Made by a program: the position numbers and the translations under genes. Shown here in pieces: positions 3,822 through 29,843 of a stretch of DNA of 29,843 nt (within the stretch, counting starts at the first letter, position 1; every line of letters begins with the position of its first letter). Under the pieces are notes generated by a model. The model was not told the DNA's origin and did no database searches. It was given only the letters and a program-made list of their open reading frames with translations. The DNA is taken from the IMG/VR virus record IMGVR_UViG_3300045988_044226, one strand, 5' to 3'. This stretch comes from a virus.

Positions 3822-4160
3822 TCACCTCCCGAGGTACGCCGTCGCGGCTCGCGCCAGCTCCTGCCCGTGGGCTGCTGCGTAAGCCCTGTCCCACTCAGCC
3901 GTAGCAAGCGAGTGCCGCTCCTTGGAGAACGTAAGCGACGTGCCGTGGTAGATGCGCCTAGCGTAAGACGTGCTGTACGTCACCGCGAACGGCTCGGCCT
4001 TCGCGGAAGCGTCGAGGTAGCCGTTCCTGAACGGAACGTACGGGGACATGCCCCTCATCGCCTCGGTCGCCATGAACAAGCCCAAGCCATCGTCCGACTT
4101 GATTCTATCGACCTTGCGCGGAATCCCGTCGAGGTCTAGCGTCACCGTAGCCACGCGCAC
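3822..4160 (-). CDS. head-tail joining or minor structural protein
   Basis: 112 aa with a GTG start preceded by GAAGAGAGGAGG. First gene downstream of the locus A repeat element. Confidence 0.35.
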   Translation of the reverse strand: MRVATVTLDLDGIPRKVDRIKSDDGLGLFMATEAMRGMSPYVPFRNGYLDASAKAEPFAVTYSTSYARRIYHGTSLTFSKERHSLATAEWDRAYAAAHGQELARAATAYLGR

Positions 4161-4165
4161 GCGCC

Positions 4166-4444
4166 TCCTCTCTTCTTAACTAAACTAACCTAAACTAAAC
4201 TAAACTAATCTAAACTAGCAGTCATTTTGCAAGCAGTTGCAAGCAGTTTGCAAGCAGTTTGCGTGCAGTTTGTAAACACCGAGGTAGACGCTAGTTTCTT
4301 CTATCTTTCAGCCAGGTTCTTAGGCCGAAATAAGCCAACATACAGATTGCAAGCAGAACGTCTGCAAACGCTTGCAGAGTGCTTGCAACCTGCTTGCAGA
4401 GTGCTTGCAACCTGCTTGCAACCTGCTTGCAACCTGCTTGCAGA
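4166..4444. repeat. non-coding iteron cluster (locus A): 5-bp TAAAC tandem repeats (4166-4215), four to five direct 10/11-bp TTGCAAGCAG units (4226-4278), a spacer of about 65 bp, then seven inverted 11-bp GCTTGCA(ACCT/GAGT) units (4346-4444)
   Basis: Read directly in the sequence. The units have 11-bp periodicity, lie in opposite orientation on either side of a lower-GC spacer, and share the core ctaaactagcag + tttgcaagc + cgtgcagtttg with locus B inside the rep gene. Confidence 0.8.
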
Positions 4445-4455
4445 ACGCACGCACG

Positions 4456-4932
4456 CTACACCCCCTCGGCATAGACGACGCTCGCGTACTTCAGGCACCC
4501 GACCTCCGGCGCGGACACAGCGCCGTTGTTGCGGAGGTCGCGGAACGCCGTCACCTCGCAGTGCGGCTTGCCATCCACGGCGGCGATTACTTCTTGGCGC
4601 GTCAGATCGCCCTGTACGGCCACGGAACCCTCCATCATGTAGTCGTGTAGGGATAGCGTGTAAACGCCCGCTGTAGCGCCTTCTACGGCCTCAGAGACCC
4701 ATTCCCGATAGGGTTTGAAGGTCGCTGTTCCGTCTGGCACCTGAACCTTGACCGTTCGCTTGAAGTGCACCGTGCCGTCAGCGTCGGTCGTGCGCGTCAT
4801 CGTCTCAGCCCACAGCGCTGGATGCAGAACGAGGGGACGGTACGTGTCCGCCCCCTCGCCCGAATCCTTGGCGCTGATGCGGTTGAACACGGTCACTGTG
4901 CTGTCGAGCAGCCCGTCAACGTCGATGTTCAC
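4456..4932 (-). CDS. head completion or stopper-like structural protein
   Basis: 158 aa, placed between the head-tail connector and the tail genes. Confidence 0.35.
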   Translation of the reverse strand: MNIDVDGLLDSTVTVFNRISAKDSGEGADTYRPLVLHPALWAETMTRTTDADGTVHFKRTVKVQVPDGTATFKPYREWVSEAVEGATAGVYTLSLHDYMMEGSVAVQGDLTRQEVIAAVDGKPHCEVTAFRDLRNNGAVSAPEVGCLKYASVVYAEGV

Positions 4933-7279: not shown

Positions 7280-7364
7280 TGCCCAACTCCGTTCTAAAGT
7301 CGCTTCTTAACCGCCCCTTCGGCGGTGGGAACGTGCCGAGTTCAAGCACCCGGCTGCTTTCCGC

Positions 7365-7376
7365 ATGATAGCACAA
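7365..7376 (-). promoter_or_regulatory. late-type extended -10 promoter (TTGTGCTATCAT) upstream of the scaffold and capsid genes
   Basis: Minus strand reads TGcTATCAT, the same TGnTATNAT pattern as the elements at 13554-13562 and 25101-25109. Confidence 0.35.
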
Positions 7377-7433
7377 CGTGCTGCCGTCTACGCCTCCCCG
7401 TCCGCCTGTCTGGGTGTTTGGTGCCGAGTGCGC

Positions 7434-7706
7434 TCAATCTCCCCGTACACGCCGTTTCACGGCCTCTTGGAGCACCCTCCGCTGCTTCTGTGATAGCCAG
7501 TTCTCGTCAACCAGCCACTCGTCGGCATCCCGGTCGTACAACGCACACAGCCCAGTGCCCAGCAGCTCGCTGTGCGGCCACGTCTCGCCAGCGAGCGCCA
7601 GAACCCCGTCGAGTTCAGACCGATACACGGCGACGCGCCCCGCCCGAATGGCTCGGGAGAGACGCGCCGCGTCCTGCATCGCTCGCTCGTACGTGTAAGC
7701 CCGCAT
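7434..7706 (-). CDS. hypothetical protein
   Basis: ORF between the minor head protein and scaffold genes. Internal start at MRAYTYERAM…. The N-terminal extension of the listed ORF overlaps the neighbouring gene and is arginine-rich. Confidence 0.3.
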   Translation of the reverse strand: MRAYTYERAMQDAARLSRAIRAGRVAVYRSELDGVLALAGETWPHSELLGTGLCALYDRDADEWLVDENWLSQKQRRVLQEAVKRRVRGD

Positions 7707-7776
7707 CAGTCGGTGTGGATGGTCACGGTGCTGCCGCTCGGCCAATCTCCTCGACGTGCTTCTTGCCGTCGGTCTC

Positions 7777-16082: not shown

Positions 16083-16369
16083 CCCGCCTTCTCGATTTCG
16101 CCCAGTGTCACGCCGCCGACCTTCTGGCAGAACTCGTCGAGCGTGCCGTAGAACAGGCTCTTTCCACGGCTCGCCGTGTTGCTGTTCACCTGAACCTCGA
16201 CCATCAGCTCGCGGTTGCCGTCGCTGTCCTCTGGCAGCGTCAGCTCGACTATGACGCTTCCCTCGTACGACTGCGCGAACGTCCTCAACCCGCTCGCATA
16301 CGTGCCTCCCCCGCTCGCGCTCGTCTTCGCGCTTCCGAAGACCTGTCCGTAGAACGTCGCCATTTTCAC
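16076..16369 (-). CDS. hypothetical protein
   Basis: 97-aa ORF in the early gene string. Confidence 0.4.
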   Translation of the reverse strand: MKMATFYGQVFGSAKTSASGGGTYASGLRTFAQSYEGSVIVELTLPEDSDGNRELMVEVQVNSNTASRGKSLFYGTLDEFCQKVGGVTLGEIEKAGW

Positions 16370-16380
16370 AACCCCCTGTC

Positions 16381-16698
16381 CTAGTTGTTTCTCACAAGAA
16401 GCTCGTACACCATGTTCGTGTACTCGCGGCTCTTCTCTGCGGCCAGGTCAGCGATGCTCTTCGCGCACCCCTCGTCGTGCTCTTCGGTTCCGCGCATCGC
16501 CTCGACGAACATCTGCTTGCGCATTTCCGTGCTCTCCCTTCTCGCTTCGGCGCACTTCCTGACGAGCTTCTTGGCGATTTCGTTCTCCCAGAGTTCGTCC
16601 GTCTTCCCAGCCAGGTCGAGCATGATGTCCTCTCTCCAGACGTTGGCGACCTCGAACAGGTCTTCGACGAACTGCTCTTTCGTGTATTCCTTCTCCAT
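16381..16698 (-). CDS. hypothetical protein
   Basis: 105 aa, the first gene downstream of early promoter copy 3. Confidence 0.45.
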   Translation of the reverse strand: MEKEYTKEQFVEDLFEVANVWREDIMLDLAGKTDELWENEIAKKLVRKCAEARRESTEMRKQMFVEAMRGTEEHDEGCAKSIADLAAEKSREYTNMVYELLVRNN

Positions 16699-16745
16699 CT
16701 TCGCATCCTGCCTTTCTAGTCCGTGTGGTGTTTCCGCCTGTAATC

Positions 16746-16774
16746 ATCTTATCGCATTACGTTCACGATTGCAA
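16746..16774 (-). promoter_or_regulatory. early sigma-70-like promoter copy 3 (-35 TTGCAA, 17-bp spacer, -10 TAAGAT)
   Basis: Minus strand reads TTGCAAtcgtgaacgtaatgcgaTAAGAT. The cassette is conserved with copies at 21075-21103 and 22658-22686, including GAACGTA in the spacer and (G/A)TTACAGGC…AAACACC downstream. Confidence 0.5.
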
Positions 16775-16793
16775 ACATTTGCGCAAGTTTTTT

Positions 16794-16832
16794 CGCAAAG
16801 AAAAGCCCGCCGACCTGCAAGGCCAAGCGGGC
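16794..16832 (-). terminator. rho-independent terminator preceding early promoter copy 3
   Basis: AAGCCCGC…GCGGGCTT hairpin followed by TTTTCTTTG on the minus strand. Confidence 0.5.
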
Positions 16833-16840
16833 TTCAATCA

Positions 16841-17215
16841 TCACCACAACGGGTTGCTGAACGGCACCCAGCCGTCCATCTTCAGCGCCTCCGAGTACTT
16901 CACTGGCTCGTCGGTCTTCAGGTACTCCCAGTGGCCTCCGCTCGTGTTCAGCAAGCCGAACTTGTCGCACGGCTGCCCCGACTTCACCCACCTGAAGTGC
17001 AGGCGGTTCGCGTGCGCGAGGCCTTGGCAATATTCGCGACCGTCAGCGTCGTGCAGGTTGTTCCCGAACCCGCAGAGCGTGACCGTCGGCTTCTCGACCT
17101 CCCTGCCGCCCCTGTGCATCTTCCCAGCGCCCCTGCGCACGACGTGGTGCTGGTTGAGCGGATATGTCCGCCCGCAGACGGCGCAGTACGGCGTTCTCAC
17201 CGTCACTCCGTCCAT
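16841..17215 (-). CDS. small HNH-like or zinc-finger protein
   Basis: Internal start MDGVTVRTPYCAVCGRTYPLNQHHVVRR…CGFGNNLHD…CQGLAHANRLH. The C..C…HH…N…C…H…H spacing suggests a His-Me finger. The longer listed N-terminus is arginine-rich out-of-frame overlap. Confidence 0.35.
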   Translation of the reverse strand: MDGVTVRTPYCAVCGRTYPLNQHHVVRRGAGKMHRGGREVEKPTVTLCGFGNNLHDADGREYCQGLAHANRLHFRWVKSGQPCDKFGLLNTSGGHWEYLKTDEPVKYSEALKMDGWVPFSNPLW

Positions 17216-17256
17216 GAGAGGGCGCAGGTACTGCGGCAGCGTGTCCACGCGTGCCA

Positions 17257-17526
17257 CTACTGCCCCTTCACCACGTAGACGGTCGCGCCCTCGCGGCGGC
17301 ACTTGATGCCGCTGAACTTCTTGCGGGCGACGGCGCTGATTGCCGCCTGCGCGGTCTTGGCCTTCTTCAGGTCGTCGAACTCGCAGCCGATGCACTCGTC
17401 GTCACCAGCCCAGAACGCCTCCAGAACCTTCTCGTAGCGACCGCTCGCGCCCATCGGCTTCTCGCAGGGCGCGAAGCCCATACCGTACTCGCTCATGTTC
17501 TGCCTTTCTTTCGTGTCTGAAAACAT
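17257..17526 (-). CDS. hypothetical protein
   Basis: 89-aa ORF. A 15-bp palindrome, GCGCCACAGTGGCGC, sits just upstream of its start. Confidence 0.4.
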   Translation of the reverse strand: MFSDTKERQNMSEYGMGFAPCEKPMGASGRYEKVLEAFWAGDDECIGCEFDDLKKAKTAQAAISAVARKKFSGIKCRREGATVYVVKGQ

Positions 17527-17627
17527 GCCTTTGCGCCACTGTGGCGCTCTGTAAGCCCCGTTTCACCTCTCTCTGGTGTAAGTGGATGCCAGACGGCGAT
17601 TCGGGGCTTAGAACCGATTCTACGGCC

Positions 17628-17849
17628 TTACGCAGGCCACGTGCTTCCCACGATGAACCATGTCAGCATGATGCAGCCGACGATTACGATGCAGGCGATT
17701 GCCCCTGCCGCGTTCGGGTGCTCGTAGGCGAAGTCGTCGGTTGCCTCTCCCAACGTGCGGCGAACCTTGCGGTACGGGTGGATTGTTCTCTCCTCCAGCC
17801 CGTTACCCGTCCAGACCTTGACCCTCTTCTCGACCGTGTAGAACTCCAT
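17628..17849 (-). CDS. small membrane protein
   Basis: Internal start MEFYTVEKRV… with a C-terminal hydrophobic segment (AGAIACIVIVGCIMLTWFIVG). Its ATG overlaps the TGA of the upstream HTH gene in a TGATG arrangement. Confidence 0.4.
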   Translation of the reverse strand: MEFYTVEKRVKVWTGNGLEERTIHPYRKVRRTLGEATDDFAYEHPNAAGAIACIVIVGCIMLTWFIVGSTWPA

Positions 17850-18034
17850 CACCAAATCTCCTCTGCCTTGACACCGAACAGCTCGCACATCTTCTTCAGC
17901 AGCTCGACGCGAGCGTCGCGCTTCTGGTTCATCACGTTGGACATGTGCGCGACGGACACGCCGGTGCGGCGTGCCAGCTCGTTCTGGCTGATTCCCTGCT
18001 TCTCGCACTGCTCGCGGATCGCCTTAACGTTCAT
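17849..18034 (-). CDS. XRE/Cro-like helix-turn-helix transcriptional regulator
   Basis: 61 aa with the HTH signature QNELARRTGVSVAHMSNVMN. It has its own upstream TATGAT -10. Confidence 0.7.
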   Translation of the reverse strand: MNVKAIREQCEKQGISQNELARRTGVSVAHMSNVMNQKRDARVELLKKMCELFGVKAEEIW

Positions 18035-18077
18035 TGCCCGTCCTCCCTTCTGTGTTTACAATCGTTATCATAGCACG

Positions 18078-18911
18078 TTACACGCCTAGGTCGTCCATGA
18101 TTTCTCTGTACCTGTCGCGCGTAGCCCTGCGCCTTCCCGTCTCGACCTCCACGGGCAGGCACGCCTCCAGCACGCGCCCGTAGATTCTTGCGGACATGAC
18201 ATCGGCTGGCGCTGCAAGCTCCTCCCTCGTGAGGTTCGTCGATACCACCATCGGCTTTCTCGCGCTGTAGCGCCCGTCCACCACGGCGTAGACGTACTCC
18301 TGTCCGAACGACGTGCTTCGCTCTGCTCCCAAGTCGTCCAGCACCAGCAGGTCGCACACGAGCAGCCTGTCCAGCATCGCATCGTCCCTCTGCACGAGCA
18401 GCTGCGGCATCGAGCGCATTATCACCGAATGCCCAGCGTCCAGCGCGGCGTTGGCGATGCAGCAGCTCAGAAACGTCTTTCCGCTGTCTGGCCTGCCGAA
18501 GAACAGCAGCCCGTAGTCGAGCTTCCCGCCAGTCTCCGCGAACCTGTCCGCGTAAGCCCTCGCCTTGCGCATCTGCTCGGCTCCGAACTTGCCGTCGTCC
18601 GCGTCGAACGTCTTCTGCCTCATGGCCTCCGACGGGAACGCAGCCCTTATTCTCGCCCGCTCGGCTTTCTCGGCACACTTGCGCTGCTCTTCGCGCTTCT
18701 GCTCCTCGTCCGCCCTCACCATGCACTCGCACATGCACGGCAGCTTGCGCACGGTTCCCTCTGAATCGGTCAACACGACCTGACGCGGCGTTCCGCACCT
18801 ACCGCAACGCACGAGGCCGTCGTCTCCGACGAACGTGTCGGCACCGAACGGCTTTCCCTCGAACCCGTCAAGCATCGAGCGCAGCGCCGATTGCATCGAA
18901 GACCGTTGCAT
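18078..18911 (-). CDS. DnaC/IstB-like helicase loader ATPase
   Basis: Walker A GRPDSGKTFL and Walker B LLVLDDLGAE are present, and the gene follows the replisome organiser. Confidence 0.8.
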   Translation of the reverse strand: MQRSSMQSALRSMLDGFEGKPFGADTFVGDDGLVRCGRCGTPRQVVLTDSEGTVRKLPCMCECMVRADEEQKREEQRKCAEKAERARIRAAFPSEAMRQKTFDADDGKFGAEQMRKARAYADRFAETGGKLDYGLLFFGRPDSGKTFLSCCIANAALDAGHSVIMRSMPQLLVQRDDAMLDRLLVCDLLVLDDLGAERSTSFGQEYVYAVVDGRYSARKPMVVSTNLTREELAAPADVMSARIYGRVLEACLPVEVETGRRRATRDRYREIMDDLGV

Positions 18912-19566
18912 CCCTCGCAGCCCCCTTCCTATTGCCGTCTCGCTTAGCCCACGAGCGGATGGTCGCGAGGTAGTTCTTGTACGACTTGCCCTTGGACGCG
19001 CAGTAGGTCGATACCTGCTCGATGCGCTCAGCCCAGTCGCTAGGGAACTCGGCCTTCAGATTCTCCAGCTCCTCGTCGGACAGCATGACGTTCCAGTACT
19101 CCCCGTAGGCGCGACGCGCAGGCTTACCCTTACCTCTACTAACCTCTCCTAAACTAACCTCTCCTAAACTAGCAGGCGTTTCGCACGCATCTTCGCGCGG
19201 TTTGCTTGCAGTCTTCGTGCAGTTTGCAAGCGGTTCGCAAACAAGCTGGTAGGAACCGCAATCCGTGACCGTCAGAGCCGCAAGCTCCTCCTCGTACTGC
19301 GTCGCCTTGCGTCGGCTCTCCGTGATGGTGTTGTTCTGCCACCAGTCCATGATGACCAGAACCCCGCTCGGGAACATGTGGACGAAGCCAGCCTTTGCGA
19401 GTTCCGCCATGGCCGCTGGCTTCGACCCTATCGAGCGCTGCACGCGCTTTGGCGCTCCCACGAAGCCCCAGTCGTCCGCGTCCATCGACAGATGGACGTA
19501 CAGCGCCTGCGCCTCGAAGCCCATATCAGCGAACCCGTCAGAGCCGATAACGTCTCTTGCGAACAT
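18868..19566 (-). CDS. phage replisome organiser / DnaD-like replication initiator
   Basis: The N-terminus MFARDVIGSDGFADMGFEAQALYVHLSMDADDWGFV is typical of the phage replisome organiser N-domain, followed by a DnaD-like C-domain. The ATG at 19566 has a GGAAAGAGG RBS. Iterons lie within the coding sequence. Confidence 0.7.
   Translation of the reverse strand: MFARDVIGSDGFADMGFEAQALYVHLSMDADDWGFVGAPKRVQRSIGSKPAAMAELAKAGFVHMFPSGVLVIMDWWQNNTITESRRKATQYEEELAALTVTDCGSYQLVCEPLANCTKTASKPREDACETPASLGEVSLGEVSRGKGKPARRAYGEYWNVMLSDEELENLKAEFPSDWAERIEQVSTYCASKGKSYKNYLATIRSWAKRDGNRKGAARDATVFDAIGAALDA
19139..19245. repeat. iteron cluster inside the rep gene (locus B): a 2x 15-bp direct repeat taacctctcctaaac, then tagcag, then TTTGC(A/T)TGCAG-type units; candidate origin of replication
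   Basis: The tandem repeat at 19140-19169 is read directly. It shares ctaaactagcag…tttgcaagc…cgtgcagtttg with locus A (4166-4444). On translation it encodes the linker SLGEVSLGEVS. Confidence 0.6.
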
Positions 19567-19645
19567 CCTCTTTCCCGCCAATTCGCACCTCCTTTCAAGG
19601 GTTCCCCCCTCCGATTTCTCTGGAGGGGGGTGTCGTCCTCGGAAC

Positions 19646-20143
19646 CTACTTCACCTGAAGGTTCTGGCTGACCTCCAAGTGAGCGCCGGCCACCTCGCGG
19701 CCAGCCTTCAGCGCCTTGGCGATTTCGGTCTTGTTCACCTTCACGGTCACGACCTTCTCGGTGAACTCCTCGGGCACAGCGGCCTCGTCATCGACGATGG
19801 TTCGCGTTGACTTGCGCGTGCCGAGCGCGACCATCGGCGTTTCCAGCTTCTGCTTCGGCGTTTTCAGCAGGCAGCGCAGCACGTACCCGTTCATGCGCTC
19901 CAGACGCTTCTCGATTGCCTTGCGGCGATCGTACAGCGCCTTCTCCTCTGCTCTGATAGCGTCAGCGAGCGACTTCTGGTTCTTCATCCAGATTCCGCAG
20001 GCCTCCAGCTTCTCGTCGAACGCGACCTGAAGCTGCTCCAGGTCGCCCTCCTCGAACAGCACCTCGCCAGTCTCCTCGTCCCACGAGAAACCCGTCTCGA
20101 TTACCTGCTCGATTGCTCGGTCGATTTCGTAAAGCGTCGCCAT
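19646..20143 (-). CDS. Sipho_Gp157-family protein
   Basis: Start MATLYEIDRAIEQVIE… with a GGAGGAG RBS. The coiled-coil pattern …EEKALYDRRKAIEKRLERMNGYVL… is characteristic of the Gp157 family. Confidence 0.5.
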   Translation of the reverse strand: MATLYEIDRAIEQVIETGFSWDEETGEVLFEEGDLEQLQVAFDEKLEACGIWMKNQKSLADAIRAEEKALYDRRKAIEKRLERMNGYVLRCLLKTPKQKLETPMVALGTRKSTRTIVDDEAAVPEEFTEKVVTVKVNKTEIAKALKAGREVAGAHLEVSQNLQVK

Positions 20144-20577
20144 GTCTCCTCCATTTCGGATTCGGTGCCCTCGTCGGCACCGCTGATTCTCACGTACAGC
20201 TCCTCCTGCGGGCACCTTACCCTCGGGAGCTTCACCGCCTTCAGGCTCACAACGTCCTTGTCGTCTCCGAACGCCACCCCGTTGAGCGCGTCCAGCACCG
20301 CCTTCGCAACGTTGTCGATGTCAGGCTTGAACGAGTCCCACTCTCGCTCCAGCTTCTTCGGTCGGCTCTTGGGCATCGGCCTGCGGTACGCAATCTCTAC
20401 CTCCACCGCGCCCTCGTGCATCGTTCCGCCCTGCGCCTGATAGGCCACCCTGACTAGGCTCTCGAACGTCTCGCCCTTCTTCGGCGTGAACGTCCTCACC
20501 CTGCCCCCGTACGAGGTGAAGCGGGGTCGCGGCTTTCCCACGACCTCGCCCACCACGTGGAGCACGCTACTCGTCAT
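20101..20577 (-). CDS. rusA: RusA-family Holliday junction resolvase
   Basis: Motifs GKPRPRF and KPDIDNVAKAVLDALNG are present. Confidence 0.75.
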   Translation of the reverse strand: MTSSVLHVVGEVVGKPRPRFTSYGGRVRTFTPKKGETFESLVRVAYQAQGGTMHEGAVEVEIAYRRPMPKSRPKKLEREWDSFKPDIDNVAKAVLDALNGVAFGDDKDVVSLKAVKLPRVRCPQEELYVRISGADEGTESEMEETWRRFTKSTEQSSR

Positions 20578-21007
20578 CGTTCTCGCGCTCGGCCTCGGCC
20601 AGCGCGTCCATCGCCTTGCGCTTCTCCTTCTCGTACACGGCGCGAATCTCGGTGTCCATGAGCTTGTAGAAGTCCTCGCGGCTCATGAAGTCGGGCACCT
20701 CGCCCACGTTGTCCTTGCGCCACTTCTCGAACTTCTCCACGACGATCAATCCGCTGTCATCGCGTCGAACCGTCACGTCTGGCCAGTACTTGATCGCCTT
20801 GTCCACGAGATTCTTGCGCCCCTCCTCCATGATTCGAGCCTTGGCGTAGGCGTACGGGTCGCTCTCGCACTCGGTCGGCGCTGCGATGGTCGCGATGTCG
20901 TCGTTGAGACGCTTCAGGCGCTCGTTCTCGATTCGCAGACGCGCGTTCTCGTCGTAGACCTTCAACACGGCCTCGACCACAGCGTACTTGCTGGCCTCGT
21001 TCTCCAT
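20567..21007 (-). CDS. hypothetical protein
   Basis: Start MENEASKY… with an AGGAGGAA RBS, downstream of the predicted transcription start of early promoter copy 2. The listed upstream extension would lie 5' of the transcript. Confidence 0.4.
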   Translation of the reverse strand: MENEASKYAVVEAVLKVYDENARLRIENERLKRLNDDIATIAAPTECESDPYAYAKARIMEEGRKNLVDKAIKYWPDVTVRRDDSGLIVVEKFEKWRKDNVGEVPDFMSREDFYKLMDTEIRAVYEKEKRKAMDALAEAERENDDE

Positions 21008-21042
21008 TTCCTCCTGCCTTTCTGGGCTTCCGCCCATCCTGC

Positions 21043-21103
21043 CAAACACCCCTGTGGTGTTTGTGCCTGTAAACATCTTAGCACGGTACGTTCGCGTATG
21101 CAA
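21043..21103 (-). promoter_or_regulatory. early promoter copy 2 (-35 TTGCAT, 17-bp spacer, -10 TAAGAT) with an operator-like palindrome CAAACACC-cctgt-GGTGTTTG over the transcript start
   Basis: Hexamers at 21098-21103 and 21075-21080. Inverted repeat at 21043-21063. Confidence 0.5.
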
Positions 21104-21112
21104 ATGTTTACG

Positions 21113-21143
21113 TGAGAAAAAAGCCCCCGATTTCTCAGGGGCT
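21113..21143 (-). terminator. rho-independent terminator
   Basis: AGCCCC-cgatttctca-GGGGCT followed by TTTTTTCTC on the minus strand. Confidence 0.5.
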
Positions 21144-21148
21144 TCTCG

Positions 21149-21334
21149 CTACTCGTCCTCGAAGTGAAGCTCCTCCTGCGACGTGCGGAGGTCGCAGGCC
21201 ATCAGCTGCCCAGTCATGCCGACGAGGCGCGGCAGCTCGTCGATGCTGTTAGAGTCGATGCTCAGCACCAGCTGCGCCTTGCCGTTGTTCGCCGTCACCT
21301 TGTCCAGCGTCACCAACATGTCGGTCACGTACAT
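21149..21334 (-). CDS. small acidic hypothetical protein
   Basis: 61-aa ORF between the SSB gene and the terminator. Confidence 0.35.
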   Translation of the reverse strand: MYVTDMLVTLDKVTANNGKAQLVLSIDSNSIDELPRLVGMTGQLMACDLRTSQEELHFEDE

Positions 21335-21344
21335 TTCTCTCTCC

Positions 21345-21764
21345 TTAGAACGGGATGTCCTCGTCGTACATTTGCGCCTCGTAGTCGCCTTGCGCCTCGG
21401 CCTGCTGCTGGTCGTAATCGTCGCCGTCGAGCCTCCGCGACTCGAAGTGGATGTTGTCAGCCGTCACCTCCAGCTTCGAGCGGTTCTGGCCGTCCTTGTT
21501 CTGCCATCGGTTCTGGTGCAGACGGCCAGTCAGCGCGACGTACGTGCCCTTGGTCAGGTATCGGCTGACGCTCTCGGCACGACGACCGAGCATCGTGCAG
21601 TCCACGTAGTTCGGGTAGTCCTCGTACTCGCCCGTCTGCTGGTTCTTGCGGCTCTCGTTCACCGCCACGCTGAACGTCAGCACGGCCATGCCGCTCGCGG
21701 TCGCCCGAAGCTCCGCGTCCCTGCACAGGTTGCCTCCGATGGACACCGTGTTCAATCCCTGCAT
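21345..21764 (-). CDS. ssb: single-stranded DNA-binding protein
   Basis: OB-fold SSB pattern with the characteristic acidic C-terminal tail …DEDIPF. Confidence 0.85.
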   Translation of the reverse strand: MQGLNTVSIGGNLCRDAELRATASGMAVLTFSVAVNESRKNQQTGEYEDYPNYVDCTMLGRRAESVSRYLTKGTYVALTGRLHQNRWQNKDGQNRSKLEVTADNIHFESRRLDGDDYDQQQAEAQGDYEAQMYDEDIPF

Positions 21765-21773
21765 GTTCTCTCC

Positions 21774-22547
21774 TTACTTCGACTTCTCGACCCACGCTGC
21801 GAGTATGCGTATCGCGGTTGCAGCTTGAATCTGGTCGTACTCCACCGCGTTCGGCGCGACCCCTAGGCTCACCATGTGCTGGCTCTTGTTGAGCGCGGAC
21901 ACAACCTCGTCAACGGTCTTGCCCTTCAGCTCGGCGAGCTGTCCGACGAGCGTCAGAATCTCGTCCATCTGCTGCTGCGTGGCGGGCTGTGGCGGCTCCT
22001 GACGCGCCGTTTGGCGCTTGGCGGTAGTGTTGGAGGGCTTGGCTGTTTTCGTGCCGCTGCGGGCGTTCTGCGCCTTCTGGCGCTGGCTTCCGTTGTCCAT
22101 AGCGTCCACCTCCTCGCCAGAATCGATTGCGAACAGGGCGCACGCCGCGTACTTGCGGGCGTAGCTCGACGCAAGCCCAGTCACCTGAGCGTCGTCCATG
22201 CCCTTCTTCGAGACCTGCTCCCTCGCGTATGCGGTCGCCGATACGGTCTCTCTGCACCCAGCAGCCCAGAACGTAATCTTCGCGCGAAGGTACCACCTGA
22301 AGGCATCCTCGCCCGCCGCCTTGTCGAGCGTCGGGTCTCCCCCGTCGTCCGCACGCTTCGGTACGATCTCGTCCTCGAAGACGTAGCCGCACCGCAGCTC
22401 TTTGCACAGCGGCTTCAACGCCGCGTTGATGTCCTCCAGCGAGCGGTACGAGTACCCGCCGAACTTGTTCACTCGACCCTTCGGGCAAGTCACGCGGTGC
22501 TGAACCTCGGCCAGCACGTCGTAGACGCTTCTCTCCTCGTTTGCCAT
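21774..22547 (-). CDS. ERF-family single-strand annealing protein
   Basis: Conserved GYSYRSLEDINAALKPL and KYAACALF match the ERF superfamily. The ATG at 22547 has an AGGAGGTG RBS. It lies upstream of ssb. Confidence 0.7.
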   Translation of the reverse strand: MANEERSVYDVLAEVQHRVTCPKGRVNKFGGYSYRSLEDINAALKPLCKELRCGYVFEDEIVPKRADDGGDPTLDKAAGEDAFRWYLRAKITFWAAGCRETVSATAYAREQVSKKGMDDAQVTGLASSYARKYAACALFAIDSGEEVDAMDNGSQRQKAQNARSGTKTAKPSNTTAKRQTARQEPPQPATQQQMDEILTLVGQLAELKGKTVDEVVSALNKSQHMVSLGVAPNAVEYDQIQAATAIRILAAWVEKSK

Positions 22548-22627
22548 AAACACCACCTCCTATGCAACGAACTCCTCGTAGAACACCGTATTCATGTCTC
22601 CTGCCTTTCCGCCCTCTCGGGCATCCT

Positions 22628-22686
22628 TGCACAAACCCTGTTGTTTGTGCTTGTAAACATCTTAGCAGGTTACGTTCACGGTGGCA
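22628..22686 (-). promoter_or_regulatory. early promoter copy 1 (-35 TTGCCA, 17-bp spacer, -10 TAAGAT) with operator-like palindrome GCACAAAC-cctgtt-GTTTGTGC
   Basis: Hexamers at 22681-22686 and 22658-22663. Perfect inverted repeat at 22628-22649, overlapping +1. Confidence 0.5.
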
Positions 22687-22699
22687 AACAGTTTGCGCA

Positions 22700-22731
22700 A
22701 GAAAAAAGGAGGCCTCCGAACGGAAGCCTCC
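22700..22731 (-). terminator. rho-independent terminator after the lysis cassette
   Basis: GGAGGC…GCCTCC hairpin followed by TTTTTT on the minus strand. Confidence 0.5.
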
Positions 22732-22749
22732 CAAAGTCGCCCTGACATT

Positions 22750-23808
22750 CTACAGCTTGATTACCTGACACGCGTAAATCAGGTTCGCGTTCTTGATTGA
22801 CGGGTTCTTCGCCAGAATCGCCGAGACAGTGGTGCCGTTGCGCAAGGCGATGGCGCTGAGCGTGTCGCCGCTCTTGACCGTGTAGGTCTTCCCCGCGCCG
22901 TTGATGATGCCCTGCGCCTCGGCGTACTTGCCGCCGCACGCCTCGATGACAGTCTGCCGCACGGGGTTGTTCCCGTACTTCCCAGCCTTGATCCACTCGG
23001 CTAGCGTCGCCGCCGACGCGTTGTGCGTGTCGTTGATGAAGCCCTGCACCTCGTCGTACCGCGAGCCGCAGTACTCGCGCCGCGCGTCGCCGTTTATCTC
23101 GTTCGTCACGACGTGGTACACGAGGTCGAGCGTCGAGCCGTCGGGCGCTTCCTGCTCGGGCTTCTGAGGCTCCTGCGGCTTCTGGCCTCCTCGGTCGCCT
23201 CTTGCGATAGCGTCCCAGCCCTCTCGGGTCAGGTATGCGATGTCGAGGTCGAGGTTGCCATCGTGCCCGTCGAGCCTGCCCGTGCTGGAATACTGGTGCA
23301 TCGTGACTGCCTTGAACGCCCCGATGCTGCCCTTCGGGAACCACGGGTCGCTCTGGTATCCCGTGGGCTTGCTGTTGGCGTACTGGGCGACCCACAGCGC
23401 GTGGTAGGGCGCGATGGCGCTCCAGTCCTCCTCGGTCAGCACAGAGCGCGACGTGTACACCATGCAGCGCACCTTGGTCTTCTCGTACACGCGGTCGAGG
23501 AACCGCTTCACCCACGCGGTGCCCTTGCGACCGTACATTTCGTAGTCGAGCACGGGGATGCCCTCGCCGAAGTAGTTCAGGCAGTTCTTCACGAAGAAGT
23601 CGGCTTCGGCGATAGCGTCGCCGCCTGCTGCGAAGTGGTAGAAGCCCCACTTCTTGCCCAGAGCCTTCGCCTGCTGCACCCACGGGTCGCACGTGTCGTG
23701 GACGATGCTCGTTCCCTCCGTCGCCTTGCATACCACGAAGTCGCACGGCACCTTAGACAGGTCAAGCCCGCGCTGGTAGTTGCTGATGTCAATTCCGTTG
23801 AGCGCCAT
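22750..23808 (-). CDS. endolysin: GH25 muramidase with a C-terminal LysM domain
   Basis: The N-terminus NGIDISNYQ…KATEGTSIVHD…GFYHFA matches GH25. The C-terminal YTVKSGDTLSAIALRNGTTVSAILAKNPSIKNANLIYACQVIKL matches LysM. There are two internal repeats of about 25 aa. Start at the ATG at 23808 with an AAGGGGTGG RBS. Confidence 0.8.
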   Translation of the reverse strand: MALNGIDISNYQRGLDLSKVPCDFVVCKATEGTSIVHDTCDPWVQQAKALGKKWGFYHFAAGGDAIAEADFFVKNCLNYFGEGIPVLDYEMYGRKGTAWVKRFLDRVYEKTKVRCMVYTSRSVLTEEDWSAIAPYHALWVAQYANSKPTGYQSDPWFPKGSIGAFKAVTMHQYSSTGRLDGHDGNLDLDIAYLTREGWDAIARGDRGGQKPQEPQKPEQEAPDGSTLDLVYHVVTNEINGDARREYCGSRYDEVQGFINDTHNASAATLAEWIKAGKYGNNPVRQTVIEACGGKYAEAQGIINGAGKTYTVKSGDTLSAIALRNGTTVSAILAKNPSIKNANLIYACQVIKL

Positions 23809-24493
23809 ACAGACCACCCCTTATCCCGTAGAAGTACTTCCAATCGACCTCTCGCAGCTCGTCCTCAGTCCACACGCGCTGCGAGTTGCCCCCGCTGTCT
23901 GGGTCGCGCATCCAGTACGACCCGTCGCTCTCCATCCAGAGCATCACCACGTGTCCGTCGTACTCCGAATCCCCAAGCTCGCCAGACATGCCGCAGAACA
24001 CCAGCCAGCCGTCCCTCACCAGCGCCAGCGCGTCGCCGATGCGCCATATCTGCCCAGTGCTCTCGATTCCGTACTCTGGGTACGCCTCCTCGATGTATCG
24101 GCAGAACTTGCCCATGTCGTTCACGCCGTCTGTCAGGCACGAATCGCCAACGCAGTCAGCGAGCTGCAACGGCGTGACGCGCTGCAAGGTCATGTACTCC
24201 AGCGCCATTGCCGCGCACACGAGGCCGCACCCGCTGTCGCCGACCGTCCAGCCAGCGTACGGCACGTGCGCCCACTGCGGGTCGTCCTGAAGCCACAGCT
24301 GCATGACGTTGCCCTCTGGTATCGGGCGGTCGTACACGGTCATCATCCGCTCCGTATCGGCGTTGAACTCGTCAACAGCCCTTATCGCGTCCTCCTGCGC
24401 GTGCTCCAAGAACAGATGCCCCCACCACAGCGTCGCGGCGAGGGCACCAGTGAGGAGTATGCAGGCGGCTCTTAGAAACCTACTCGGCCTCAT
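23789..24493 (-). CDS. signal-anchored papain-like cysteine peptidase (Peptidase_C39_2 / NlpC-P60-like); candidate second lysin
   Basis: N-terminal hydrophobic segment LRAACILLTGALAATLWW. The GDSGCGLVCAAMALEYM cysteine motif is followed by a downstream His (HVVMLW). It lies between the holin and the muramidase. Confidence 0.5.
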   Translation of the reverse strand: MRPSRFLRAACILLTGALAATLWWGHLFLEHAQEDAIRAVDEFNADTERMMTVYDRPIPEGNVMQLWLQDDPQWAHVPYAGWTVGDSGCGLVCAAMALEYMTLQRVTPLQLADCVGDSCLTDGVNDMGKFCRYIEEAYPEYGIESTGQIWRIGDALALVRDGWLVFCGMSGELGDSEYDGHVVMLWMESDGSYWMRDPDSGGNSQRVWTEDELREVDWKYFYGIRGGLYGAQRN

Positions 24494-24758
24494 GAGTGCT
24501 CTTAGCCCCCTTGTACAGCTCCCAAGCTCCCGTGGCTGCGAGGCCGCTCACGAGGCCAGTGCAGACGATGCTCACGATGTTGTCCGTGGTGATGCCGCCC
24601 GTGAACGATGTCACGACCGAGCAGGCGATGCCCAGAACGCCCGCGATAAGCGGCACATAGCGGTCTACCTTCTCCCCAGCCGTCTTCTTCACCACGTAGC
24701 AGACACCGTAGCACAGCACGGCGATTACGGGCATGACGTAAGGCTCCAGAAACTCCAT
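24480..24758 (-). CDS. holin
   Basis: 92 aa with three predicted transmembrane segments and a charged C-terminus, inside the lysis cassette. Confidence 0.6.
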   Translation of the reverse strand: MEFLEPYVMPVIAVLCYGVCYVVKKTAGEKVDRYVPLIAGVLGIACSVVTSFTGGITTDNIVSIVCTGLVSGLAATGAWELYKGAKSTHEAE

Positions 24759-24770
24759 CTTCTCCCCTTC

Positions 24771-25067
24771 CTACTGCAACCCCAGCCGAAGCAGGATTGC
24801 GCCTATCACTGCGGCAACCACGAGCGTGATTACCTGCTTCACCAAGTCTTCCCAGCGCTGCGCTGGCTTCATCTGCTGAGCGTCCATGCGCCCGTCGATT
24901 TTCGCGACCGTAGCGTCGATGCGGGTAAGCACCGTGTCCATCGTAGCGCTCTTGATTTTCAGCTCGTCAAGCTCCGTGCCGTGATTGCTCACGCGCTCGT
25001 CCAGCGTCTTGATGTCGGACATCATCTGCTGGCTGTCCGCTTCGAGCTTTCTGACGCGACAGTCCAT
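24771..25067 (-). CDS. XhlA-family protein (haemolysin XhlA-like lysis accessory protein)
   Basis: Coiled-coil N-part and a C-terminal transmembrane segment (VITLVVAAVIGAILLRLGL). The start is taken at MDCRV… with a GGAGGAA RBS, because the -10 element lies only 6 nt before the upstream GTG. Confidence 0.55.
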   Translation of the reverse strand: MDCRVRKLEADSQQMMSDIKTLDERVSNHGTELDELKIKSATMDTVLTRIDATVAKIDGRMDAQQMKPAQRWEDLVKQVITLVVAAVIGAILLRLGLQ

Positions 25068-27505: not shown

Positions 27506-28536
27506 CGCGCCATCGCCCTCCTCATGTTCGTAATCCTCTTGCTACCGAACCCCAATTGTACGCTATGCCCCTCTGGCTTGAACACCTCAGTGACCTCCAC
27601 GATGCGCGTCTCCAGCTCCAGACCGATGTCGTCTAGAATCACGCTCACCTTGTCGCCGAGGTCGAAGTCCTCCAGATAGTTCGCGTCTCCGAGGTTCGAC
27701 ACGTCGATTTCCTGCGCCACAACGCAGTCAGCCAGCTTCTCCAACGCCTCCTGCCTCAGAGCCGCCTTGAAGTCCTCCTCGCTCTGGTCTTCCTCTGGTG
27801 CCTCGCTGCCCTTGTCCAGAAACACCTCGTACCGCTCGCCGCCGCCGCTCAAATCGACCTCGAACTGCAACGCCTCGTCCTTAGCCGACACCTTGCATAC
27901 GTTGGCGTACGCGGAGCGGTCGATGGAGATCTCCTCGTCCTCCACGTTGCCGAACGCCGAGCTGAACACGCACCACGGGTTTGCGTCCTGCGACTGCGTT
28001 CTGTCGATGCCCTGCCAAATCTGGCACACTAGCCCGCTGAAGTCGTCAAGCGCCGTCACCCTGTAGCTCAGCTCTCGCGTCTCCAGAATCGAGTACCACT
28101 TCTCGCCGAGCAGGTCGCCGATGAAGTCGCACTGCGTCCTGTCGCCGAGCGGCTGCTCGTTGGCCTTCCAGCCGATGCCCTTCTTGGCCTGCACCCCGAA
28201 CGTGTCGTACATGCGCTTTATGACGTTCTCCGTCTTGCTCAGGTCTGCGACGAAGCGCGGCGATGCCACGATGCCGTTCAGCCTCTGCTCGGCGAAGAAC
28301 CCCGACAGCTGCACCAGCTTCTCGCCGCCGTTGTTCGTGTACTGGAGCTTCTGCACAACGCCGACCTCTGGGCGGTCGTGCGTCATGATGTACGCCCAGC
28401 TCGGGTCGTACACGTCTGCGGAAATCTGGATGCTGAAGTCTCCAGCATCGTAGTACTTTCGATTCCACTGCAAGTTGAAGTACGGGATTGCGGCTGTCAC
28501 GAGGCCGAACTTGTCGTCAAGGCCGTAGACCTCCAT
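27502..28536 (-). CDS. tail-tip protein, Tal-like N-terminal domain
   Basis: 344 aa between the Dit gene and the fibre gene. See the G9 tract and upstream ATG at 28567 for uncertainty about the true start. Confidence 0.45.
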   Translation of the reverse strand: MEVYGLDDKFGLVTAAIPYFNLQWNRKYYDAGDFSIQISADVYDPSWAYIMTHDRPEVGVVQKLQYTNNGGEKLVQLSGFFAEQRLNGIVASPRFVADLSKTENVIKRMYDTFGVQAKKGIGWKANEQPLGDRTQCDFIGDLLGEKWYSILETRELSYRVTALDDFSGLVCQIWQGIDRTQSQDANPWCVFSSAFGNVEDEEISIDRSAYANVCKVSAKDEALQFEVDLSGGGERYEVFLDKGSEAPEEDQSEEDFKAALRQEALEKLADCVVAQEIDVSNLGDANYLEDFDLGDKVSVILDDIGLELETRIVEVTEVFKPEGHSVQLGFGSKRITNMRRAMAR

Positions 28537-28543
28537 GGAGCCA

Positions 28544-28552
28544 CCCCCCCCC
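28544..28552. repeat. homopolymeric tract, C9 on plus and G9 on the coding strand, just 5' of the tail-tip gene start
   Basis: Read directly as ccaccccccccccg. It separates an out-of-frame ATG with a strong SD at 28567 from the listed start at 28536. Confidence 0.9.
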
Positions 28553-28576
28553 GTCGAACCAGTTCATTCTTCCTCC

Positions 28577-29461
28577 CTAGATGCCGAGATAGCGCTTCCA
28601 GTAGTAGAGCGACACGGACATGACGTTCTCGCCCGAATCAGCGTCGTACTCGAACGTCGTGTCGCCCGCCTCGATTTGGAACGACGTGAACGAGCTTGCT
28701 CGGTCAACCTTGTTTATCGCGTTCTGCCCGTTGAGCGTCACCCTAGGCGGCCGCTGCTCGAAGTCGATTACCAGCTCGTCCTTCTGCTGCAACGTGCCCA
28801 CGAAGCGCACGAACTTGTCTCCGATGCTGATTCTCGGGTTCTCCACCGTGCCGTCTGCTCTGATAACGACCCTCGGGAACGTCGTAACGTCGCCGTCGTT
28901 CTGGATGTCCACCGTCCTGTTGAAGTCGTACACGCCCATGACGAAACCGCGCTTGTACACGCCTGCTGGCGTGCTCTGCACGACCGAGTGGTACGGGAAG
29001 CCGAACTTCGCCGTGATGAACGCCACGTCCTTGCCGAAGTTGTCCTCGCTCAGCAGGTACGGCATCGGGCACAGTATCGTCCAGTCGAACGTCACTGGCT
29101 GGTAGATGTTGCCCGTCTCGCACTTGAACGCGTACTGCTCGCCAGCACACCACAGCGTGCGCCCCTGATACGTCAGGTGCGCCTCGTACGTGTGCTTCGG
29201 GCTGAAGAACCTGATTGCCTCCAGACGCTTCTCCGCGTTGTCGGCTGGGTTCGCAAGCTCCGCGTGAACCGAGCGGTCTACCGTCTCCACTCGCTTGTTC
29301 GTGACGACACCGCCGTCATAGCTCGCGTTCTCCTGCACCGAGACCGAGTGCGGAAGGTTCGCCCAGTTCTCCAGCCCGTCGTTCGGAATCATCCAAACCA
29401 CGTTGTCGATGTCGAACTCCAGACCGTCGTCTCTCACGATGTGGAGTATGACTTGCTCCAT
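28577..29461 (-). CDS. distal tail protein, Dit-like
   Basis: 294 aa immediately downstream of the tape measure protein, with an AGGAGG RBS. This is the conserved position of Dit in siphoviruses. Confidence 0.5.
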   Translation of the reverse strand: MEQVILHIVRDDGLEFDIDNVVWMIPNDGLENWANLPHSVSVQENASYDGGVVTNKRVETVDRSVHAELANPADNAEKRLEAIRFFSPKHTYEAHLTYQGRTLWCAGEQYAFKCETGNIYQPVTFDWTILCPMPYLLSEDNFGKDVAFITAKFGFPYHSVVQSTPAGVYKRGFVMGVYDFNRTVDIQNDGDVTTFPRVVIRADGTVENPRISIGDKFVRFVGTLQQKDELVIDFEQRPPRVTLNGQNAINKVDRASSFTSFQIEAGDTTFEYDADSGENVMSVSLYYWKRYLGI

Positions 29462-29557: not shown

Positions 29558-29843
29558 TTACACGTACGAACCCGCGAGTCCGTACCGCTGCTGCAAGCGC
29601 ATCGTCCGCGCAACTTGGTCGGGGCTTTCCACGGGCTGGTTGAAGTTCACCGTCTGGTAGTTCGTCGTGCCGCCAGCGCCTTCGAGCGCCTGCGCCTGAA
29701 CGCTCAGGCGGGACACGCCGACGTTCAGGTCGCGCTCGATTGATGCCATCGGGTCGTTCTTCTCCCATCCGACCGCCACGCCATCCGCTAGGTACTTGCC
29801 TACCTCGTCGCGCATGACCTTGGACGGCGAGGCGATGCCGAAG
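29558..29843 (-). CDS. tape measure protein, C-terminal part; same ORF as 1..1783 after circularisation
   Basis: The listed ORF 29558..29815 (MRDEVGKYLADGVAVGW…) stays open upstream to the window end, and its frame matches the minus-strand frame at 1..1783. TAA stop at 29558. Confidence 0.6.
   Translation of the reverse strand, partial: FGIASPSKVMRDEVGKYLADGVAVGWEKNDPMASIERDLNVGVSRLSVQAQALEGAGGTTNYQTVNFNQPVESPDQVARTMRLQQRYGLAGSYV
29767..29843. repeat. second copy of the 77-bp terminal overlap
   Basis: Exact match to 1..77. Confidence 0.9.

Follow-up and report, generated by a model that had tools for sequence, protein, structure and literature searches.

The DNA analyzed here, referred to throughout as the window, is a viral contig of 29,843 nucleotides (IMG/VR record IMGVR_UViG_3300045988_044226) whose first and last 77 bp are identical (1-77 and 29767-29843), indicating a closed circular assembly with a genome of 29,766 bp; the join of the circle is read straight through in relatives. 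All of its recognizable genes lie on the minus strand. Among the genes for virion assembly, a 158-amino-acid (aa) gene and a Minor_capsid_2 gene are separated by a block of repeats that we call locus A, and a similar segment, locus B, lies half a genome away inside the gene for the putative replication initiator Rep1. The parts of locus A and the two genes that border it are as follows.

4456..4932, minus strand: upstream flanking gene, 158 aa, head-tail module (phrog_3366; homologue of PMBT5 gp18).
4161..4455, minus strand: locus A, the entire non-coding element between the 158-aa gene and the Minor_capsid_2 gene, 295 bp (from the sequence and open reading frames).
4347..4453, minus strand: left (upstream) iteron array, about nine units of YTGCAAGCnnn at 11-bp spacing (Tandem Repeats Finder and motif matches).
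4278..4346, minus strand: lower-GC spacer between the two iteron arrays, 69 bp (from the sequence).
4214..4277, minus strand: right iteron array, four to five units of CTGCnnGCAAA, ending at the junction CTGCTAG (Tandem Repeats Finder and motif matches).
4178..4217, minus strand: TAGTT pentamer array of 8 units, a putative DNA-unwinding element (Tandem Repeats Finder, 8.0 copies).
4164..4172, minus strand: ribosome-binding site (RBS) GAGAGGAGG of the Minor_capsid_2 gene, directly past the pentamers (read from the sequence).
3822..4160, minus strand: downstream flanking gene, 112 aa, Minor_capsid_2/head completion (PF11114, E 1.8e-14).

Reading in the direction of the genes, the order is thus the 158-aa gene (4932..4456), the gap, Minor_capsid_2 (4160..3822, starting with GTG after the RBS GAGAGGAGG), and the tail genes. 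A first-pass annotation made from the letters of the window had described a non-coding gap between two head-tail genes, and the 295 bp at 4161-4455 bear this out. Iteron copy number varies among relatives in 11-bp steps, which would break any reading frame, so the locus is non-coding; a coding role for the arrays was considered and rejected on the same ground. The GC fraction of the gap is 0.46, against about 0.62 for the genome. Tandem Repeats Finder places an 11-bp array of about 7.5 units at 4363-4444, in line with the seven tandem units first counted (about nine across 4347-4453), and a 10/11-bp array of 4.4 copies at 4226-4272, matching the four to five units seen earlier. The pentamers had been overcounted, at about 10 rather than 8, and the lower-GC spacer is where it was said to be but measures 69 bp instead of about 65 bp. 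The two arrays had also been given opposite orientations, an assignment that cannot be made because the core CTGCNNGCAG is near-palindromic and matches both strands; in the relative L008, both arrays consist of CTGCATGC in one direction, with CTGCATGCAAA as the common unit.

These repeats are far more frequent than chance allows and, as a motif search across the genome showed, are confined to the gap and one site in rep. With at most one mismatch, TTGCAAGCAG matches 11 times in the window (1.8 expected), 10 times in the gap and once at 19224 inside rep. The phased pair TGCNNGC-N4-TGCNNGC has 20 matches at the gap, 5 in rep, and 6 elsewhere, compared with 6.6 expected for the whole window, and clusters of the phased motif occur at A and B only. 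The features that bear on the relationship between the two loci are these.

18868..19581, minus strand: Rep1, 237 aa, a replisome organizer or DnaD-like initiator, the presumed binder of loci A and B (phrog_8489, E 1e-45; also phrog_5708).
19129..19245, minus strand: locus B, the rep-internal origin-like segment with iterons and TTAGTTTAGGAGAGG repeats, encoding the Rep linker at about codons 113-151 (alignment; Tandem Repeats Finder, 19138-19171).
4175..4275, minus strand: segment of A paralogous to the rep-internal origin, 101 bp (ungapped local alignment, score 77).
18078..18911, minus strand: DnaC/IstB-like helicase loader, overlapping the end of rep (phrog_50, E 3.5e-44; PF01695).

Aligning the gap with the 714-bp rep gene gives a single ungapped match of 101 bp, in which 4275..4175 pairs with 19229..19129 (rep nucleotides 353-453, about codons 118-151) at a score of 77. 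Other parts of the genome reach 25-30 at best, and shuffled rep sequences score 18 +/- 2.3. The presence of the same core inside rep had been noticed before, and the likeness proves stronger than was stated. The right half of A and locus B are colinear unit by unit: in each, four or five iterons of 11 bp lead to the junction CTGCTAGTTTAG, beyond which come short repeats of the TTAG type, which at B read TTAGG/TTAGT. Locus B encodes a poorly conserved and length-variable linker (about residues 113-151) between the N-terminal and C-terminal domains of the Rep protein.

A layout of this kind has been described in the Bacillus phage SPP1, where oriL lies inside gene 38, oriR occupies a non-coding segment that interrupts the virion genes, and the initiator gp38 binds both (PMC6316719). 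Applied to SPP1 as a positive control, the same alignment pairs nucleotides 373-441 of gene 38 with the gap between gene 7 and gene 8, which is oriR, at a score of 78. The scan finds no second copy in Tuc2009, in the Eggerthella phage PMBT5, in the relative L035, or in phages of this family that carry an unrelated initiator, Rep2, all of which score 30-37, the level of background. The test can thus tell the two situations apart, and not every phage has the dual layout.

The build and position of locus B point to the familiar origin of the P335-type lactococcal phages. Rep1 is 39% identical to Rep2009 of Tuc2009 over residues 1-169 (tblastn, E 7e-28), and the GenBank record of the Tuc2009 rep gene carries the remark "contains origin of replication." Rep2009 and ORF13 of TP901-1 bind direct repeats within their own genes, and these repeats are the origin (PMC8965321). 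In Tuc2009, nucleotides 340-450 of rep hold iterons of 11 bp (CAACCAAATGA), after which a 5-bp repeat (AGGAT/AGGTT) occurs 11 times. Given that B has the same two-part build at the same position in a homologous gene, it is very probably the canonical origin of the window phage.

Both loci also stand out in DNA stability. In a nearest-neighbor scan of 40-bp stretches across the whole 29,766-bp genome, the pentamers of A (4177-4216) form the weakest duplex of all, at -1.064 kcal/mol per bp against a mean of -1.552 (standard deviation, 0.084), and B (19131-19170) forms the second weakest, even though it is coding. In relatives with the same initiator the ranks recur, with A first and B second in L029 and 000062, and A first and B third in 046997. 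At A and at B the weak tract directly adjoins the iterons, and iterons with an adjoining unwinding element are a classic arrangement.

Every one of the four Rep1 lineages whose junction could be read, namely, the window itself, 000062, 046997, and L029, has locus A at that same position, across Rep1 identities of 66-100%. Their Rep1 identity to the window and the state of the locus are as follows.

000062: Rep1 93% identical; locus A present.
046997: Rep1 78% identical (about 77% nucleotide identity genome-wide); locus A present.
L029: Rep1 66% identical; locus A present, 120 bp.

Among relatives, unit counts vary from 0 to about 9 in the left array and from 6 to 11 in the pentamers. In L029, locus A is reduced to five iterons and six pentamers without a left array or spacer, and this 120-bp copy implies that the conserved core is a complete B-like origin module and not binding sites alone. 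The spacer does not belong to that core, as L029 has none and that of L008 shows no conservation of sequence. Within lineages, A and B resemble each other in ways that set them apart. In L029, the two share TGCAGACAGA and the junction ATTTCATCGCTAGT, neither of which occurs in other lineages, and they are 75% identical to each other compared with 60-68% to their orthologues. In 046997, both consist of CTGCATGCAAA units, equal in number, and they are 79% identical. Loci A and B thus evolve in concert across lineages.

Elsewhere among the relatives, the junction takes other forms. There is no gap in PMBT5, L030/31, or L032/33. Of these, PMBT5 lacks Rep1, and so do L032/33 in the 10 kb upstream of TerL. 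The PMBT5 initiator is a DnaD-type protein unrelated to Rep1 with internal repeats of its own; its gene (PMBT5 is also labeled L039) carries at 28503-28617 24-bp repeats followed by an A-rich 13-bp repeat, with no second copy elsewhere in that genome, and these internal repeats are probably its origin. L035/36 encode an initiator of the SPP1 gp38 type (HTH_36 plus TIGR02220). L035 has a GC content of 44% and a TerL that is 63% identical, and its junction, between a 159-aa gene and Minor_capsid_2, holds a 136-bp gap with unrelated 21-bp repeats (2.7 copies; L035 17329-17446) and with the weakest duplex of the 21-kb locus. No internal repeats were found in the L035/36 rep gene, and the junction element may be the origin of that phage. 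A likeness between the L035 junction repeats and the PMBT5 rep-internal repeats (AAATTKGRTAG) was pursued and dropped, as it was not enriched and the two Rep proteins are dissimilar.

Another set of relatives, which we call group 2, comprises four contigs (L003; L015/L016, L005/L020, L007/L021) that lack the 11.7-kb early region of the window, including Rep1 (about 13222-24965). They carry a module of Rep2, Erf-like, SSB, and Gam-like genes between the Phage_min_cap2 and scaffold genes (L003 1534-2400; about 7300-7780 in the window), and one of these genomes closes as a 26.1-kb circle. Rep2 is unrelated to Rep1, and its gene has an origin-like array of its own (L003 1798-1920), in which an AT-rich tract accompanies five GGTGATAAAACATCAC iterons. 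Relaxed selection on A in the Rep2 phages was considered and set aside, since decay there is only modest and inconsistent.

Separately, the unit TGCAAGCAGGT, identical to the left-array unit of the window, occurs four times at 5770-5860 in L009 (IMGVR_UViG_3300049893_001406), an unrelated 45-kb viral contig. The repeats lie inside an ORF of 241 aa with no assigned function and are followed by a purine- and AT-rich tract, the usual look of a rep-internal origin. We make no use of L009 as support, as its 241-aa protein matches Rep1 with a BLASTP E value of 0.13 and has no Pfam match and one weak PHROG match.

On this evidence, we take locus A, with moderate confidence, to be an intergenic second copy of the origin module recognized by Rep1; the element itself is real and probably functional. 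The first-pass annotation had proposed an expanded second copy of an initiator-binding or origin module; paralogy, the architecture of B, predicted melting, concerted evolution, and the SPP1 control all support this, and of the roles it listed, a second origin is the one the evidence favors. We infer that Rep1 binds, unwinds, and fires at A. Made early in infection, Rep1 would bind the phased iterons (core CTGCnnGC) at both A and B and would distort or melt the adjoining TAGTT tract, after which Rep1 and the DnaC-like loader would recruit the host helicase. Locus A might then act as a second initiation site, as has been proposed for SPP1 oriR; at a minimum, it would be a high-affinity site for a Rep1 nucleoprotein complex in the late region. 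We favor a site capable of unwinding over a pure barrier or decoy, because iterons are accompanied by the AT-rich tract in every Rep1 lineage, even in the minimal 120-bp version.

Several observations weigh against this interpretation. Detrended GC and AT skew has its extremes at 6.9 kb and 21.05 kb, positions that miss A and B by about 2-2.7 kb, and these extremes are not significant. When covariation of A and B was assessed by permutation over three independent lineages, a number that gives the test little power, the result was 4/24 by gapped identity and about 2/24 in an ungapped, register-anchored comparison made by hand, and gene conversion alone could keep the two loci alike. The group-2 contigs retain a shortened A with Rep1-type repeats and modest decay, meaning that A can persist without Rep1, at least for some time. 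Even for SPP1, whether oriR serves as an active origin is unsettled.

The likeliest alternative is that Rep1 binds A without firing, either as a fork barrier for the switch from theta to sigma replication, following the oriR model, or as a titration or handcuffing locus that limits B, in the manner of P1 incA. In SPP1, oriL is where replication begins, and the proposal for oriR is that bound gp38 stalls the fork there, triggering the switch to concatemers (PMC6316719, PMC3485210). RusA, ERF, SSB, and Gp157 of the window could process a stalled fork, the iterons of A number up to about 14 and those of B about 5, and the two loci sit nearly opposite each other, 50.2% of the way round the circle for the window and 50.3% for 046997, all of which would suit such a function. 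Iterons alone would suffice for it, yet an AT-rich pentamer tract that is the weakest duplex is kept in every Rep1 lineage, and L029 has no left array, the part best suited to serve as barrier or titrator. We regard binding without firing as unlikely. Locus A could also be a nonfunctional relic of a rearrangement of replication modules, with slippage and gene conversion with B preserving the look of an origin. Replication modules have indeed moved in this family, the group-2 module sitting between head genes about 3 kb from A; group-2 phages retain A without Rep1; and intergenic divergence is about that of third codon positions (0.88-0.92 vs 0.86-0.89). A relic would nevertheless be hard to reconcile with an AT-rich tract left intact in a genome of 62% GC in all Rep1 lineages, down to 66% Rep identity, or with arrays that are expanded rather than eroded in Rep1 phages, and relatives without A show that its precise absence is tolerated, so that deletion is possible. 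We think decay of this kind a doubtful explanation.

A role in transcriptional or RNA control of the downstream tail genes, whether as promoter and operator or as an mRNA hairpin formed by the two arrays, appears more doubtful again. TAGTTT fits the actinobacterial -10 form TANNNT, A abuts the RBS of the next gene, the RNA folds at -139 kcal/mol (z = -7), and L035 has an unrelated repeat plus an AT-rich element at the same junction. Scanning turned up neither a sigma-70-type promoter nor a convincing terminator, the one hairpin inside the repeats being weak; the junction genes abut or overlap in relatives, where a promoter is hence dispensable; and control of this sort would leave the paralogy with the interior of rep unexplained. 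Without the left array there would be no hairpin, yet L029 lacks this array and others have 2-3 units of it, and we therefore rejected an RNA or DNA hairpin as a conserved feature, strong as it is in the window (z = -7 and -6). An Rfam search of A returned four subthreshold chance matches (17-21 bits, with thresholds of 50-100 bits). Repeats in a non-coding region, together with a protein with a ParB_N domain encoded elsewhere in some relatives, might suggest a pac, cos, or partition site, as the first-pass annotation had also allowed. That suggestion finds no support: the small terminase gene (helix-turn-helix [HTH] protein, 12575-13048), the usual place of pac, and TerL lie about 7 kb away, and no ParA/ParB pair stands beside A. 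An error of assembly is excluded by many independent contigs, as A occurs at the same place in at least nine of them, from several metagenomes, different samples, and different assemblers, and the 77-bp overlap closes the window into a circle. Taken together, a packaging or partition site or an artefact is extremely improbable.

The spacing of the two loci is striking: 14,954 bp of the 29,766-bp circle, or 50.2%, separate A from B. For 046997, whose complete genome has 26,758 bp, the value is 50.3%, with both arcs about 1.5 kb shorter. Two contigs that may not be full circles give arcs of 47.8% and 52.2% (000062) and an A-B distance of about 51% of the contig (L029). This geometry may be an ancestral accident preserved by synteny. 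A more elaborate and rather improbable possibility joins several of these ideas: A and B would be an opposed pair kept by selection, in which one starts replication and Rep1 on the other provides a simultaneous second start or a programmed fork arrest and switch, while the hypervariable left array, with its 0 to about 9 units among cocirculating strains, tunes Rep titration or competition during coinfection, perhaps including use in trans of the orphan A of the Rep2 phages.

The window phage is a gut phage of the Eggerthella type. PMBT5 is the closest named relative, with 65% of nucleotides identical across a portion of the head-tail genes; near and distant DNA searches of named phages returned it as the sole match, and it lacks the gap. 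Close relatives come from metagenome collections, mostly human-gut assemblies. Scanning genome contigs with TerL yielded zero relatives, and hence no prophage context. On the minus strand, the early part runs endolysin, ERF, SSB, RusA, Gp157, Rep, DnaC-like loader, HTH protein, and more early genes, and the head part runs small terminase, TerL, portal, Phage_min_cap2, scaffold, major capsid, and head-tail adaptors. The ERF, SSB, RusA, and Gp157 genes beside rep form a set comparable to that of SPP1.

Three features away from the two loci deserve mention. TerL (12609..11107) is interrupted by an intein inserted after ...EDDHA and before C (window region 10431-11424). Among relatives, P0003 (407 aa) is free of the insert, with DHACDAMRY contiguous, and P0001 (558 aa) has a contiguous mini-intein of 151 aa. 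In the window, an insert of about 994 bp cuts the ORF short at 500 aa and contains an HNH_3 endonuclease ORF of 218 aa (11129..10473) in a separate frame, with the C-terminal splicing block in a third ORF (10813..10361), so that a free-standing homing endonuclease seems to have split or interrupted the intein. In 000062, 042698, and the group-2 contigs, about 2.3 kb of additional sequence, absent from the window, lies at the position corresponding to window coordinates of about 13324-13335, just upstream of the small-terminase region. An early protein of 264 aa (14290-15084, minus strand) has a weak S-AdoMet_synt_N match; its relatives, at about 60-70% identity, number more than 600 and come from very diverse viral contigs, a far wider spread than that of the rest of the genome.

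Among known systems, Tuc2009 is close to the window in its initiator, Rep1 being homologous to Rep2009, and the Tuc2009 origin, 11-bp iterons followed by a 5-bp array at the same position in the gene as B, is built like the right half of A. Tuc2009 differs in having no second copy, its best score outside rep being 35, which is background, and in its iteron, which is CAACCAAATGA rather than the CTGCnnGCAAA of the window. The left array, spacer, and right array of the window also recall the origins of staphylococcal pathogenicity islands (SaPIs), in which two iteron sets flank a lower-GC region; we take this likeness as a lead only. SaPI origins are a single locus next to the rep gene, and in the window family the flanked-spacer layout is lineage specific and absent in L029, hence not part of the defining core.

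Duplication of an initiator-binding array away from the origin is familiar from plasmids. P1 incA and the alpha, beta, and gamma origins of R6K are cases in which such an array is repeated away from an origin that adjoins or overlaps rep, with unequal copy numbers. These control loci, to which no homology would be expected, lie within a few kilobases of the origin, and incA has no unwinding element of its own. The second array of the window, in contrast, keeps an AT-rich tract and lies half a genome away, in a phage genome of lytic type.

The closest parallel in layout is SPP1. In both phages one origin, in the window the probable one at B, lies inside the part of the replisome-organizer gene that encodes the interdomain linker (gene 38 nucleotides 373-441; window rep nucleotides 353-453), and a paralogous second copy of about 70-100 bp sits in a non-coding gap within the virion-assembly genes, with alignment scores of 78 and 77. 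Direct repeats together with an AT-rich unwinding tract are found at both copies, the tract of SPP1 oriR being the third weakest 40-mer of its genome, and the window shares with SPP1 a structural module of SPP1 type and a neighboring recombination kit of single-strand annealing protein, SSB, and Holliday-junction resolvase. The differences are equally clear. The initiators have no detectable homology (BLASTP E 5.5), gp38 having a TIGR02220/Phg_2220_C domain that Rep1 lacks, and the iterons are unrelated in sequence. In SPP1, about 13 kb (29% of the circle) separates oriL from oriR, which occupies the interval between gene 7 and gene 8, whereas A lies between two head-tail connector genes at about 50% of the circle from B and has an additional iteron array of variable copy number together with a spacer. 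SPP1 encodes its own DnaB-type helicase, whereas only a DnaC-like loader was found in the window. Because Rep1 and gp38 are not homologous, the resemblance is one of layout and presumed mechanism, not of protein family.

For a long time, to our knowledge, hardly any tailed phage other than SPP1 has been well documented as having an origin in its initiator gene and a second, origin-like copy among its late genes, and the role of that second copy is disputed. If the second-origin interpretation is right, the window would add an independent case of the SPP1-like dual layout, with an unrelated initiator family, in phages of human-gut Coriobacteriia (Eggerthella type). Nature would also have supplied the variants, among them a minimal version of 120 bp, arrays with 2 to about 9 extra iterons, and a swapped initiator with the orphan site kept, providing a second system in which to ask whether such sites are origins, fork barriers, or copy-control loci. 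Pairs of this kind are found by a simple computation that combines rep-internal paralogy with a ranking of duplex stability, and in annotation the stretch can be flagged as probable replication DNA and need not be taken for a promoter gap or a fault of assembly. Dual origins of this kind are already known from SPP1; what is new is the phage group and the initiator family.

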